Assembly: GCF_003334315.1 (NCBI RefSeq)
Contig: NZ_QOWR01000023.1
Length of the DNA: 64,000 nucleotides
Source: Escherichia coli
GTDB taxonomy: Bacteria; Pseudomonadota; Gammaproteobacteria; Enterobacterales; Enterobacteriaceae
Direction: 5' to 3' (one strand)
Numbering within the stretch: the stretch's first letter is position 1; the number at the start of each line of letters is the position of its first letter. Made by a program: the position numbers and the translations under genes. Below the pieces are notes generated by a model that worked only from the letters and a program-made list of their open reading frames with translations, did no database searches and was not told the origin of the DNA. Shown here one piece after another: positions 59,510 through 64,000 of this stretch.

Positions 59510-59968
59510 GGGGGAGGGGGGAGATTATGGAACTTTGCTCCTTGTAAGGACTAATTATTTTTGCATATTACTTCATTAGCTGCGATGATTTTTCTTTAAT
59601 ATTCATTATGTTAATAAGTTCTGGATGAGTGTGCTCTCATTGGATTTTTTATCCGTCTTGTTCTGCCGCAGGATGAGACTATACATCGTCGAGATCGCAA
59701 TGATGATATGAGTTGTTCCTCCTGCGACGGCTCTAATCAAAAAAGAGCAGGAGTGCTTTTCCATCTATTGCGATGATGGCTTTATTATCTGAAGGATGAC
59801 AGTCACATTTAAAAAATATTTAATCTATAGATCACAATGTAGGGTCATGGAATATATGTATACAACTATTTTCTTCTTCACTTTTAATTATCGTATTCAT
59901 TATAAAACTAAGTTAAAAAAACTCCTGGAGAGTGAGTTATTAATATATTTTTAAATAAAATTAAGTTA

Positions 59969-60406
59969 TCATTCATCGATGCACTTTATAGAATCATCAA
60001 TGGCCATAATAGTACTATTAACTCTCAATTTTATATTTTTATCATCACTACAAATATTAACTGAATTTATATCAATGATTTTTTTATTCTTATCTTTTAT
60101 TTTATTTACTGTTTCAATGCAATCAGCGGCAAGTTGGAGTGGATTTAGATTTTTCAGATATGGTCTTATGATCTTTCCCTTACTTAATAAATAGCATGTA
60201 TAGGATTCGGAAAGTCCAGCATCTATTTTGTACCTCATTATATTAGATAAGGATGTGAGAAATTCCTTGTTATCATTCGCAGCCATATATGCCAGTCCGA
60301 GTTCAGCCTCTGCGGCCTTACAGGCAAAATAGCTTAGTGAACACGCTTTTCGTCCCTCTTTAGTACTGGCTGATATTAGTGCCCATAATATTGCTTTGTC
60401 TGCCAA
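59969..60406 (-). CDS. hypothetical protein (145 aa), candidate Rhs-associated immunity protein
   Basis: AT-rich ORF with no family I recognise; lies in the Rhs orphan-module region. Confidence 0.4.
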   Translation of the reverse strand: MADKAILWALISASTKEGRKACSLSYFACKAAEAELGLAYMAANDNKEFLTSLSNIMRYKIDAGLSESYTCYLLSKGKIIRPYLKNLNPLQLAADCIETVNKIKDKNKKIIDINSVNICSDDKNIKLRVNSTIMAIDDSIKCIDE

Positions 60407-60494
60407 ATCTAACTCTCTCTGAAATTGTCTTGCAGTAACTGCACTCGCAGAAATAGAGAAAAAAATACAATTGTTAATAACCTTGCCATATTTT

Positions 60495-60788
60495 TTAGTC
60501 CGTAACTGTTAATGTGCTATCTGGCTCTGAAAATATTAACTCATTTAATTTTTGCATGTCATTAGATAAACCAGTTATACAACCCTCGGAACAGAATCGA
60601 GGTCCTAAAGACGGACCAAAAGCGTTTAAACAACTATGTATTGAAAATCCATTGCGATTATAAGTTCCTGTATTAACTGACGGTACTAATCGTATGCCGT
60701 CAGGTTTTCTATTGCTTGCTCCCGGGTCATTAACATTCCAACTCCATAGGCCTTGAGGTATTGGCCATCTATTTATAAATGTGTACAA
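60495..60788 (-). CDS. hypothetical protein (97 aa), possible toxin-tip fragment
   Basis: ORF with apparent TTG start, immediately downstream of a degenerate Rhs core-end remnant. Confidence 0.3.
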   Translation of the reverse strand: MYTFINRWPIPQGLWSWNVNDPGASNRKPDGIRLVPSVNTGTYNRNGFSIHSCLNAFGPSLGPRFCSEGCITGLSNDMQKLNELIFSEPDSTLTVTD

Positions 60789-60861
60789 CGGGGATTATTT
60801 TTACATTGCATATTATTACCAGAAGCGACTGGAATACTAAGCACATCATAAAAATTATCAT

Positions 60862-61100
60862 CACATGGTATATCTGAAACACACGAAAGCATACCTAAAG
60901 TTATGCTGTATAAACAGGTGGCTAATCCCAAGGGGATCGATTCCAGAAATCGGGTTCAACGGATACTGATAAAAATTCCACCTACCTTCCAGCCCAATCG
61001 GAGCCTGAGTGTTATACCGCCCCTGCTGCGGTTAATGTTACCGATAATAGTTATAGTACAGCCCTGATTCATCATCATACTACTGCTGCGGCAGTCTGAT
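60862..61100 (-). pseudogene. degenerate third copy of the Rhs core 3'-end segment
   Basis: Nucleotide similarity to the core-end segments at 62100-62260 and 63855-64000 (ggttcaacggatactgataaaaattcca...agcccaatcgg...ataccgcccctgc); hand translation gives ...[24 protein letters not shown]...DPLG with in-frame stops on both sides. Confidence 0.4.
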
Positions 61101-61112
61101 GAACTATTGCTT

Positions 61113-61574
61113 TTACGGATTCTCCTTATTCTTCCTTCTATCCATTCGCTTTAGCTTTTTGAGCTCTTGAAGTTTGCTCTTTGCATCAATATTACCGTTA
61201 TTTACAGCGAATTTCATCCAATAAATAGCTCTATTCAAATTATAATATTCTGATAATGTTGGATTTGTATCTGATAAAAAGACCCCATAATTAAACTGCG
61301 CTGTAACATTCCCCTGAGATGCTGATCTTTCCAAGAATCGCAATTGTTTATCAATATTATTTTTAGTAAAGCAGTAATATTGATATAGTCGAAATGATGC
61401 CTCTGAATCACCATGTTGTGATTTATACTTCAGTTTCATCAGCTTTTCTTCACTTAAATCATAGGTCATTGCTGTAGATCCCATCACACTTTCGTTTTCT
61501 TTTATTTTCACATCAGCACCATGCAATTGACCAATAAGAGAAAAATAAAAAAATAGTAACAAGCATGCTTTCAT
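61113..61574 (-). CDS. yibG: Sel1/TPR-like repeat protein with signal peptide; probable immunity protein for the adjacent orphan Rhs toxin tip
   Basis: 153-aa ORF MKACLLLFFYFSLIGQLHG...; immediately downstream of the orphan rhs fragment. Confidence 0.7.
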   Translation of the reverse strand: MKACLLLFFYFSLIGQLHGADVKIKENESVMGSTAMTYDLSEEKLMKLKYKSQHGDSEASFRLYQYYCFTKNNIDKQLRFLERSASQGNVTAQFNYGVFLSDTNPTLSEYYNLNRAIYWMKFAVNNGNIDAKSKLQELKKLKRMDRRKNKENP

Positions 61575-61585
61575 ACATCTACAAC

Positions 61586-62530
61586 CTATCTTATATCACT
61601 GGGTTTTTCTGGCGTACCTTGCATATTAGAAATGGGGTGCCCAGATGGCCCATATGTTATCCAATTACCAAGGTCTTTTGTTGTTATAGTCATTAGATCC
61701 TTATTTGAATTAAGGTTCGTTGGTGCTGTTAGCACTGTATCCATTTTTAACTTACCATTAGTTCCTCGCCCCCACCACGTCCATAGCGTGTCAGGTCCTA
61801 TTACATTTGTATGTAACTCTTTAGCTAATTGGCTAGCAAATGAATTTTGTCCTTTACCTGTATTACAAGAAAATAACCAAACTGTCATCCCATCTTTATA
61901 ATTCCCATCAAATTTAATTAGATATGCTAGATCTTTAGCTGTCATGATACTGCGCGTTGCGGATTCAATAGATGTGGGGGTACCATGCCCCCCGATTGTG
62001 AAAACGCCTGGGATATTAATCTCATCAGCTACAGAATGGATAAGATCACTTTCGGGGTATAAATTTATATCAACCAAACCTTGCGGATCTACATTTATGA
62101 CCGGATTCAACGGATACTGATAAAAATTCCATCCCCCCTTCAGCCCAATCGGATCCTGAGTGATATACCGCCCCTGCAGCGGGTCATAATAGCGGTGGCG
62201 GTTGTAATACAGGCCGGACTCCTCATCATACTGCTGACCCGGCAGGCGAATGAGCTGCTGCAGATGATGCGGGTTCTCATCACTCAGCAGGTTGCCCCAT
62301 TCATCATATTCTGCGCACCACGCTGTTGCCCCTTCCGTGCTGATGAGCGCCAGCGGCAGGCCGCGATGGTCGCAGTGGTACAGGTGGATTTTTCGCGCCG
62401 GCGTGTACACCGGGTCCATCTGGTTTTGCATCTGCTCCACCGTCAGGCCGCACGATGCCAGCCAGCGGCGGCTTTCCTCACTCACCCGGTCAGCCAGGAT
62501 TTCACTTTCCAGCCGGTCGAGCATCTGCAC
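61586..62530 (-). CDS. orphan Rhs C-terminal fragment: about 150 aa of Rhs core end plus a roughly 165-aa variable toxin domain
   Basis: Contains the core-end signature ...[45 protein letters not shown] followed by a unique C-terminal domain; reading frame opens just after the yibA stop (GTG 62528 / ATG 62522). Confidence 0.75.
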
Positions 62531-62571
62531 CGTGCCGGCGGGAATCCCCCACTGTGCATAGGCAACTCACG

Positions 62572-63414
62572 CTATGAACGCTTCAGCTTATCAATAGCGG
62601 AAGTTATAATTTCATTGTCATCAAACTTGTACAACATAGTATCTAAAACAGGAAGTAGCGTTTTATCACCTAATTCACCCGCAGCTTCAATGATATCATC
62701 ATAAACAGTATTTTTTTTTAACTCATCGCATAAAACAGATAAAACCCTTTTATCTTTTCTGTAGGAAAGTCCGATTATTGCTTCAATACGGACTTCCTCA
62801 TTTTTATCCTGAAGCATCTCCACAAAACAATCCCTAATATCACTATTATCATATTTATTGATATTTATTGCAAATGCGGCCCAGTTTCTGACATCTCCAT
62901 TTGGATCTTTTAACAGATTAATCAATAGTGGAATTGTTGCTTTATCATTGATAACAGAAATAGCAAATGCTGTAGCACGTCTGACATTAGTCGATTTATC
63001 AAAAGCAGTAATTTGAGATTGTTCTACTATTTTAGGTGAATAAATTGGGTTTTTCTTGCATCGCTGAGCCGTTGACTCGATTGCCGTAGCTCGAACGCAA
63101 GCGCTCTTATCATTCAATGCCATATTGTTCAAAATATTAAAAACATTATCTTCGCATTTTTTGCAAATTTTTATTTGCCCGAGTATAAATGCTCCGATAT
63201 CTCTACGGATATAATTTTTATCAGAGCAGAACTCAATTGCCAATCTAACAGCGTCTTGCCCACCTCTTAACTGTAATACTCTGGCAGATGAAATCCTTTT
63301 CAAGGAATTGTGATCATCAAGTAAGCGAAATAATTCATCATCATTTAGTTTCTTACATTGATTATATAAACCATACTCTTTACTTGCCTTTCTTTTCTGG
63401 TATGTATTTGACAT
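62572..63414 (-). CDS. yibA: HEAT-repeat protein YibA, probable immunity protein for the upstream Rhs toxin tip
   Basis: ORF track 62572..63429; start trimmed to MSNTYQKRKASKEYGLYNQCKK (280 aa); sits directly downstream of the Rhs C-terminus. Confidence 0.8.
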   Translation of the reverse strand: MSNTYQKRKASKEYGLYNQCKKLNDDELFRLLDDHNSLKRISSARVLQLRGGQDAVRLAIEFCSDKNYIRRDIGAFILGQIKICKKCEDNVFNILNNMALNDKSACVRATAIESTAQRCKKNPIYSPKIVEQSQITAFDKSTNVRRATAFAISVINDKATIPLLINLLKDPNGDVRNWAAFAININKYDNSDIRDCFVEMLQDKNEEVRIEAIIGLSYRKDKRVLSVLCDELKKNTVYDDIIEAAGELGDKTLLPVLDTMLYKFDDNEIITSAIDKLKRS

Positions 63415-63434
63415 TGCAGGAACCTCCACAAGGG

Positions 63435-64000
63435 CTATCTTTTTTTATCGTTTGACTGTCTGGAGTGACGACAATTCCAGGCTTTCTGTGTGCTTTTTGC
63501 ATCTTTAGCACTAATATCACCACAATCAATTAGTTCCTGAAGTACGTCACATCTGTCGGGTTTTTTCCCATCACTCCAGAATCTGTCATTTATTATGTCA
63601 TTGACACGATCAGTTATCCCTGTGTCTGCAACATTTCCACGAGAAGCTATCATTGTTATATCTAATGCTAGTCCCGGATTATTCAATATTAGAGAGTCAA
63701 ATATTCTTTGTGATGCTGTATCGTTCCACCATTTTGTCAATGCTTTTGCAGCATTATCATCTGCTTGCTGCTGTGCAGGGCTTTTGGGCCATGGAATTGG
63801 CAAGGGGAATGGTCTAGGAAAAACTTCTAACCCCAGAGGATCTGTATTCGTAACTGGATTCAACGGATACTGATAAAAATTCCATCCCCCCTTCAGCCCA
63901 ATCGGATCCTGAGTGATATATCGCCCCTGCAGCGGGTCATAATAGCGGTGGCGGTTGTAATACAGGCCGGACTCCTCATCATACTGCTGCCCCGGCAGGC
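63435..64000 (-). CDS. rhsA: Rhs protein, C-terminal end only (core end plus variable toxin domain); remainder of the gene lies outside the window
   Basis: Hand translation from the window edge gives ...[57 protein letters not shown], then a unique 130-aa tail; symbol assigned from the yibA neighbourhood. Confidence 0.75.

Follow-up and report, generated by a model that had tools for sequence, protein, structure and literature searches.

The stretch analyzed here (the window) comprises 64,000 nucleotides of contig NZ_QOWR01000023.1 from the Escherichia coli assembly GCF_003334315.1, and its last part, from 59.6 to 64 kb, forms the 3' end of the rhsA locus, which encodes an Rhs polymorphic toxin. 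Megablast against complete E. coli genomes, combined with the list of open reading frames (ORFs), placed positions 53.5-64 kb in the rhsA region of the chromosome, read in reverse. First come mtlR-mtlD-mtlA on the minus strand and yibI-yibH on the plus strand; the minus strand then carries yibU, yibV, yibW, yibS, yibG, yibJ, yibA and the 3' end of rhsA. RefSeq annotates the identical set from rhsA to yibU in near-identical genomes. The 4.5-kb array is 99.56% identical to that of K-12 MG1655, from which it differs by 19 substitutions and one indel, and it is found with at least 80% coverage in 2,482 of the 5,426 complete genomes.

The array was confirmed to consist of three head-to-tail Rhs tip modules on the minus strand, one attached to rhsA and two displaced, each with an antidote gene. 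A 172-nucleotide core-end segment occurs in three direct copies, at 62076-62247 (taken as reference), 63829-64000 (93% identity) and 60925-61096 (74% identity). The rhsA and yibJ copies are direct repeats that are 93-97% identical, and the core fragment of yibJ matches the K-12 rhsA core over 453 nucleotides at 95.6%. The ends of modules 1 and 2 both match the RHS_core model of NCBIfam, at E 1e-31 and, over model positions 1111-1261 of 1261, at E 1.6e-91; TIGR03696 matches both as well (module 1, E 3.6e-21). The PxxxxDPxGL motif that closes Rhs cores is intact in module 1 (DPLGL, 63828-63842) and module 2 (DPQGL, 62075-62089) and degenerate in module 3 (PISGIDPLG, at about 60924-60938). The core fragment has a GC content of 0.60, against 0.25-0.40 for the tips. 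Directly 3' of every tip lies a small gene on the same strand: yibA, yibG and yibV start 11-24 nucleotides past the tail stops or next to them.

An earlier note, made from the letters of the window alone, had read this region as three head-to-tail modules on the minus strand, and the core-end repeats, the RHS_core matches and the RefSeq annotation bear this out. Its description of the second module as an orphan core-end fragment with a different tail, followed by yibG, holds as well, given the RHS_core match and the clan-CD tail described below. It placed the start of the layout at 59900; the location is right, although the array begins slightly outside, at about 59606-59969. It also took the first module for the C-terminus of a full-length Rhs gene followed by yibA. 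The C-terminus and its neighbor are indeed there, but "full-length" lies beyond the reach of the last 566 nucleotides of rhsA, which are all that the window contains.

These 566 nucleotides (63435-64000; b3593 in the K-12 annotation), assigned by their RHS_core and TIGR03696 matches, run off the window. They hold the core end (63828-64000), a proline-rich linker of about 45 amino acids that follows DPLGL (about 63678-63827), an Ntox34 toxin domain (about 63453-63677) and the stop codon (63435-63437). The tail matches the whole Ntox34 model (PF15606, E 1.6e-43, model positions 1-80 of 80) and contains both family motifs, GNxxD as GNVAD (63624-63638) and WxCxH as WNCRH (63465-63479). Ntox34 was described with exactly these motifs, an Imm-HEAT partner and an RHS carrier (Zhang 2012). 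It has been labeled an "RNase" in one paper, solely from NCBI domain annotation. Comparison of the Ntox34 tail with PDB sequences gave chance-level matches only, and a word-indexed homologue search retrieved only close relatives. At the other end of the protein, the N-terminus of K-12 RhsA has a weak and partial PAAR match (E 0.026). The linker recurs at 50-89% identity before unrelated C-terminal domains in two Rhs fragments (P0195 and P0196), and it would seem to be a pre-toxin module in its own right, open to reuse, and not a part of Ntox34.

The gene that follows, yibA (62572-63414), encodes the HEAT-repeat immunity protein for the Ntox34 tip. YibA matches PRK09687 (E 3.2e-140) and Pfam HEAT_2, and is the "hypothetical protein yibA" of PDB entry 1OYZ along its full 280 residues (E 5e-183). 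It has no signal peptide and is therefore cytoplasmic. The toxin and antidote roles of this pair have an experimental basis: Poole 2011 (PMC3150448), citing Vlazny and Hill 1995, credits the Hill laboratory with the findings that RhsA's C-terminal region stops recovery from stationary phase and is neutralized by yibA.

The second module is the one of greatest remaining interest. Displaced tip 1, yibJ (61586-62530), joins an Rhs core end of 151-152 amino acids (62075-62530) to a tail of 162 amino acids (61589-62074), with the predicted catalytic His in GGHG (61982-61993) and the predicted catalytic Cys in FSCNTG (61856-61873). The tail is open in the window; in K-12, a CAG-to-TAG change at window position 61831 places a stop at tail residue 82. 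The tail itself had no match in Pfam even at E <= 10 and none by sequence to solved structures, but among 1.84 billion representative proteins a profile search retrieved 735 relatives, including full-length Rhs proteins of 1,300-2,450 amino acids carrying the same tail. In an alignment of 58 sequences the only invariant columns are His30, Gly31 and Cys70; the His and the Cys are residues 182 and 222 of the 314-amino-acid ORF. In the AlphaFold2 (AF2) model, which has a mean predicted local distance difference test score (pLDDT) of 94.4, strands 24-28 and 64-68 precede the His and the Cys, so that the His-Gly and the Cys each follow a hydrophobic beta-strand, as clan CD of the cysteine peptidases requires. 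Individual relatives match the clan-CD families Peptidase_C80, DUF4347, Peptidase_C13, CHAT and Peptidase_C25. The family profile also has a weak match to plant legumain (E 0.1) that aligns the His-Gly and the Cys with what we take to be the catalytic pair of legumain. The model resembles solved clan-CD enzymes, its best structural matches being autoprocessing cysteine-protease domains (CPDs) and Tce1.

Because of the invariant His, Gly and Cys, the clan-CD matches of the relatives and the legumain alignment, the YibJ tail is assigned a clan-CD (caspase/CPD-like) cysteine-peptidase fold with a His-Gly...Cys dyad. Judged by profile hidden Markov models (HMMs), it is a separate family within clan CD, outside Pfam C80 and DUF4347. 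Some RefSeq records name the orphan YibJ a "DUF8616 domain-containing protein." A preprint on Rhs2-SciX was considered for its relevance to this tail and set aside, as it concerns an unrelated BECR nuclease. The same His/Cys core occurs three to six times within giant proteins of 3,000-7,400 amino acids (P0028-P0040, P0060 and P0073). This resembles the arrays of caspase-like repeats in large toxins, with a proposed role in processing, that were noted by Zhang (2012).

Directly 3' of yibJ lies yibG (61113-61574), a Sel1-repeat gene. YibG begins with a signal peptide that by inspection is of typical Sec type, MKACLLLFFYFSLIGQLHG, followed by AD. It matched solved Sel1-repeat proteins in phmmer searches (6ok3, E 4e-10; 8sxq, E 1.5e-9; 6deh, E 1.9e-8), had only a weak TPR_27 match in Pfam (E 0.0015), and is named "sel1 repeat family protein" by RefSeq. 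We surveyed the gene directly 3' of YibJ-type tails in eight lineages: the window, an orphan within a longer array of Salmonella, two loci with VgrG and PAAR genes adjoining the Rhs gene, a Rhs protein with a Sec signal, and three metagenomic contigs. A YibG homologue occupied this position in seven of the eight (bit scores 17.8-116 against YibG), and most partners carried an export signal or a lipobox. A partner that is conserved, exported and dedicated is the hallmark of a toxin/immunity pair, which would place the action of the YibJ tail in the periplasm and make YibG its presumed periplasmic immunity protein. We found no statement in the literature that the partner of this tail is consistently an exported Sel1 protein.

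Two further observations concern this pair. Of the 19 substitutions that separate the window from K-12, the lineage with the yibJ nonsense codon, twelve fall within the 462 nucleotides of yibG, where they affect 10 codons, six of them non-synonymously; the cluster could come from selection on the immunity gene, either relaxed or diversifying, or be a patch brought in by recombination. In Salmonella enterica subsp. salamae (L007, 58-3876), an orphan with a YibJ-type tail (47% identity) and a YibG homologue is followed by a TseH-like tail with Imm58 and then by a PLA2G12-like tail, in an array longer than that of E. coli.

Module 3 is a dead pseudogene: its Tlde1-like tail has three stops, two frameshifts and a nonsense codon, and its Imm57 gene is frameshifted. 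The core-end remnant (60924-61100, within the yibS pseudogene of K-12 at 60861-61112) has stops at 61082, 61040 and 61034 and ends in DPLG (60924-60938). RefSeq lists yibS as an RHS repeat-associated core domain pseudogene with an internal stop, and yibW is also a pseudogene. The tail (60495-60934, yibW in K-12) is read across two breaks. An additional C in the CCCC run at 60932-60935, within the DPLG codons, leads into an ORF of 52 amino acids (60773-60931), and a TAA plus a 1-nucleotide deletion near 60770-60776 leads into an ORF of 97 amino acids (60495-60788). Intact relatives exist in E. coli (P0170, 87% identity) and in a metagenome (P0174, 64% identity), both with PF10908. As these show that two shifts are needed, we rejected the reading of the 97-amino-acid ORF as a one-frame continuation of the core remnant interrupted by stops only. 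After frameshift correction, the tail matches Tlde1_dom (E 4.2e-5) and YkuD (E 0.021), and phmmer against solved structures gave chance-level matches only. Its motif H-x15-S-E-G-C-I (60576-60641) has a Glu where the Tlde1a motif, H-x(14-17)-(S/T)-H-G-C-h, has a His. A Tlde1-like L,D-transpeptidase fold is thus predicted for the original domain.

The partner gene yibV (59969-60489), which RefSeq calls "Imm57 family immunity protein, frameshifted," matches Imm57 (PF15596, E 2.7e-46). Its signal-peptide piece MARLLTIVFFSLFL... (60409-60489) and its 145-amino-acid body (59969-60406) lie in different frames, and this copy is therefore defective. K-12 has an extra A at window position 60086 (minus strand), as a result of which its YibV has 111 amino acids instead of the 145 in the window; an in-frame signal peptide is absent from both. 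A metagenomic contig (L005) preserves what an intact version looks like, with an intact Tlde1 tail beside an intact 180-amino-acid Imm57 protein that has a signal peptide and is 37% identical to YibV. Pairing of Tox-LD-peptidase with Imm57 on RHS carriers was catalogued by Zhang (2012). The decay is old, since the same defects are annotated in every arrangement that we inspected.

All three predicted toxin tails are thus classifiable into families. The profile and structure searches that the earlier note had proposed gave an assignment for each, namely Ntox34, a clan-CD fold and a Tlde1-like domain. Its statement that the tails show no recognizable catalytic motif does not survive, in view of GNxxD/WxCxH in Ntox34, His-Gly...Cys in the clan-CD tail and the L,D-transpeptidase-type H-x15-S-x-G-C. 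It was right in seeing a degenerate core-end remnant in the third module, but the two small ORFs that it left unassigned are the C-terminal part of the toxin tail (97 amino acids) and the Imm57 body (145 amino acids). The label of orphan toxin/immunity modules suits yibJ/yibG, which are intact, and not module 3, which offers no usable module.

The same chromosomal site holds other arrangements in other strains. In the window and in K-12, Ntox34/yibA is attached and yibJ/yibG displaced. In AR_0128 and O157:H7, the same yibF-to-yibH site contains a 1409-amino-acid rhs gene with the YibJ tail, followed by yibG, and has no Ntox34/yibA. In strain 503440, the attached tip is of RhsB type with yhhH, and behind it stand an orphan yibA that lacks its toxin and then yibJ/yibG; this orphan yibA (6053-6895 of L006) is kept at 99.6% identity. 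The YibJ tail is present in 3,332 complete genomes, and in nearly all of them it is 99.8-100% conserved and open; a rounder figure puts its presence at about 3,500 of 5,426. Rough subtraction of the 2,482 genomes with the window's array from the 3,332 suggests that several hundred genomes have the arrangement of O157:H7. The Ntox34-plus-yibA stretch has some match in 3,142 genomes and a match of at least 80% coverage in 1,757, and many of the genomes without the full stretch match yibA only. Some strains carry an IS1A insertion within the rhsA-yibA part of the array, which splits the match into two pieces.

Recombination or gene conversion between the direct core repeats predicts mosaic genes, and one was found. 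Of 25 sites at which the K-12 rhsA core end and the yibJ core fragment differ, 24 are yibJ-type in the AR_0128 rhs gene. In O157:H7, the gene shows the rhsA type over nine consecutive sites (62322-62237) and the yibJ type over the next eleven (62102 onward), and the switch lies inside a 135-nucleotide stretch (62102-62237) that is identical in both copies. The view that the layout is a substrate for tip displacement and exchange, already put forward in the earlier note, gains from this mosaic as well as from the alternative arrangements at the site.

It is very probable, in our judgment, that this part of the window forms the distal end of the rhsA polymorphic-toxin locus of E. coli, with one attached tip and displaced tip/immunity modules behind it. 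Rhs proteins consist of a YD-repeat shell ending in PxxxxDPxGL and an exchangeable toxin domain, with the small downstream gene encoding the matching immunity protein. Successive new tips would have pushed older ones downstream, and three generations would be preserved here. The current tip is the proline-rich linker plus Ntox34, countered by the cytoplasmic HEAT-repeat protein YibA. The displaced tip yibJ, with some 150 core codons, carries an intact clan-CD peptidase that would act on an envelope target within the victim cell's periplasm, where the secreted YibG would block it. The oldest tip, yibS-yibW, was probably once a Tlde1-like peptidoglycan toxin of the L,D-carboxy/transpeptidase fold, and yibV its periplasmic Imm57 protein. 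RecA-type recombination between the core repeats could delete the Ntox34/yibA module and return the YibJ tip to a full-length gene, and intact orphan immunity genes could protect against kin firing the matching toxins. Delivery is presumably by a type VI secretion system (T6SS) in strains having one.

More tentatively, and with slightly less than even confidence, we propose that the YibJ tail and YibG represent a class of Rhs/T6SS antibacterial toxins in which a periplasmic clan-CD peptidase, acting on peptidoglycan stem peptides or on an essential envelope protein, is paired with a secreted Sel1 immunity protein. The pairing would be shared by E. coli, Salmonella and distant Rhs proteins, with the tip attached in O157:H7 and kept in reserve in K-12-type strains. 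VgrG/PAAR genes adjoin the YibJ-type loci in two lineages. Protease activity of the tail, exerted in the periplasm, is what the dyad and the exported partners point to.

Several observations weigh against one part or another of the overall account. The partner ORFs of two of the eight lineages (L011 and L013) have no signal peptide as called. Only two of the 58 relatives match Peptidase_C80 (PF11713) at E <= 1e-3, and none match DUF4347 (PF14252). For the orphan yibJ, neither a promoter nor a start of its own is recognizable, and the scan for promoters stayed at chance level. The rhsA gene is intact in K-12, but RefSeq records an internal stop in the closest genome, CP53. For the Ntox34 domain, an AF2 model built from a three-sequence alignment was all-helical, with pLDDT 61 and a predicted TM score (pTM) of 0.40, and was unusable for fold comparison. 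K-12-type strains are not known to have a T6SS, and delivery of these toxins by the present strain is uncertain. Our literature search found no experiment on the YibJ tail, whether on protease activity, toxicity or neutralization by YibG. Finally, the nearest structural relatives of the tail, Tce1 and Tce2, lack an immunity gene and showed no toxicity in E. coli.

A rival account would treat the displaced toxin fragments as silent debris without any reuse and let selection act solely on the orphan immunity genes, that is, on yibG and, in some strains, yibA. In its favor, strain 503440 keeps yibA without the Ntox34 toxin, yibG is intact in every arrangement seen, K-12 tolerates the nonsense codon in yibJ while keeping yibG, and the orphan yibJ is without clear expression signals. 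Binding sites for RpoD holoenzyme have been reported in vitro in the yibA-yibJ and yibJ-yibG spacers, and in the case described by Poole 2011 (PMC3150448) an orphan CdiI was expressed and its orphan toxin was not. As the whole explanation it is nevertheless rather unlikely: the YibJ tail is open and 99.8-100% conserved in nearly all of about 3,300 genomes, it serves as the attached tip of other strains, and the O157:H7 mosaic implies exchange between the repeats. A stockpile of immunity genes is compatible with the displacement model, and both can hold.

The YibJ tail might also be no antibacterial toxin at all. It could be an autoprocessing peptidase like the C80 CPDs of the MARTX toxins (multifunctional autoprocessing repeats-in-toxin), TcdA and TcdB, or an anti-eukaryotic effector like P. 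aeruginosa Tce2, which lacks an immunity gene and is toxic in yeast but not in E. coli. Its best structural matches, autoprocessing CPDs and Tce1, fit such a role, as does its occurrence three to six times inside giant proteins of 3,000-7,000 amino acids. However, the YibJ-type domain lies most C-terminally, after DPxGL, and Rhs proteins release their tips by their own core protease. A small dedicated Sel1 partner, mostly with export signals, is kept across distant lineages, and C-terminal caspase-like domains were predicted as toxins (Zhang 2012). We therefore regard a non-toxin role as improbable. Far less credible still is that the three-module pattern arose from chance similarity or misassembly of a repetitive locus. 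Rhs loci have been misassembled before, as in EDL933, where the Perna assembly and PCR results differ at the rhsA locus (PMC7216683), but the array of the window stands in the same arrangement in 2,482 complete genomes, and HMM E-values are as low as 1e-91. This reading is already refuted by the population data, and its residual probability is negligible.

At the distal edge of the AT-rich island (GC 0.25-0.33) lies yibU (59606-59804), a pseudogene in K-12 and a remnant of an ISAs1/H-repeat transposase (transpos_ISAs1 of NCBIfam, E 6.8e-5, below the curated cut-off). An ORF of 52 amino acids within it (59606-59764) was considered as an immunity gene and rejected on account of this assignment. 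Further out, an ORF of 488 amino acids over mtlD (54180-55646, minus strand) starts about 320 nucleotides upstream of the annotated 1149-nucleotide gene; the extension crosses the mtlA-mtlD spacer, its translation resembles repetitive sequence of the REP (repetitive extragenic palindromic) type, and it is an artefact of ORF calling rather than a longer protein. A scan for promoters and terminators gave 12 promoter-like sites against 15.7 expected by chance and was uninformative. NCBIfam searches with all small ORFs returned only the RHS core, PRK09687 and weak matches.

The feature is correctly described but ordinary: its locus, the model of displacement and most of the domain assignments had been published before. 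The rhsA locus has been in the literature since 1990, the module-1 toxin and antidote since 1995, the displacement model since 2009, and the Ntox34/HEAT and LD-peptidase/Imm57 pairings since 2012. C-terminal caspase-like toxin domains on RHS carriers (Zhang 2012) and the biochemistry of Tlde1 (PMC9638812) have likewise been published. What the window offers is a worked example, in which an attached, an intact displaced and a dead displaced tip stand within one 4.4-kb stretch, with the alternatives and a mosaic junction available in public genomes. The remaining interest lies in the prediction of a clan-CD peptidase as an Rhs toxin acting in the periplasm, and in its cleavage target. We know of no clan-CD enzyme that is a proven interbacterial periplasmic toxin.

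The closest known system is the K-12 rhsA locus itself (Feulner 1990; Vlazny and Hill 1995). Gene order and flanks are the same, with yibF/selAB on one side and yibH-yibI-mtlADR on the other, and one difference is that yibJ carries a nonsense codon in K-12 and is open in the window. As in the published cases of Rhs displacement and orphan modules (Jackson 2009, PMC2935791; Poole 2011, PMC3150448), a GC-rich core fragment, an AT-rich tip and an immunity gene form direct repeats that follow the main gene downstream; old tips degenerate, and the core repeats can recombine. The locus in the window differs from those published examples in having two dissociated tips; an rhsABCF subfamily is named in that literature. 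Orphan Rhs genes in Salmonella, whose recombinants have been recovered under selection, were reportedly treated by Koskiniemi in 2014. Module 1 agrees in full with the Ntox34/Imm-HEAT pair (PF15606; Zhang 2012), with a full-length HMM match, both motifs, the HEAT partner and the Rhs context, and we found no difference. Module 3 resembles Tlde1, the L,D-carboxypeptidase/transpeptidase effector of the Salmonella T6SS (PF10908, PMC9638812), in an HMM match and a variant H-x15-S-x-G-C-h motif, and by its Imm57 partner, with a signal peptide when intact, it resembles the Tox-LD-peptidase/Imm57 pairs, of which Rhs-attached versions are catalogued (Zhang 2012). Unlike Tlde1, the copy in the window is a pseudogene, with SEGC in place of the SHGC of Tlde1a.

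For module 2, the same tail and Sel1/TPR partner are known at the same locus of enterohaemorrhagic E. coli (EHEC) EDL933, as RhsA (EDL933_4854) and RhsAI (z5018), where the tail is attached to full-length RhsA (PMC7216683). That in silico study described EDL933 RhsA as a K-12-type gene "fused" to the yibJ homologue z5017, with z5018 as the Sel1/TPR immunity candidate. It reported an I-TASSER match of the EHEC RhsA C-terminal domain (RhsA-CT) to 3HO6 and proposed an effect on small GTPases, namely their inactivation. However, 3HO6 is the cysteine-protease domain of TcdA, the dyad is conserved and the partner is exported, which is why we favor a periplasmic peptidase toxin over a GTPase-inactivating function; this is a correction of detail to that study. 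From Tce1/Tce2, the P. aeruginosa T6SS effectors of the DUF4347 family (PDB 9QPE), and from the C80 CPDs of V. cholerae RtxA and C. difficile TcdA/TcdB, the YibJ tail is distant in sequence, at about 12% identity, and it differs from both groups in sitting on an Rhs shell after DPxGL. The partners differ as well: the YibJ tail goes with a Sel1 protein that is secreted, whereas Tce1/Tce2 lack an immunity gene and the Tox-Caspase domains of Zhang (2012) are paired with Imm36 and Imm57.

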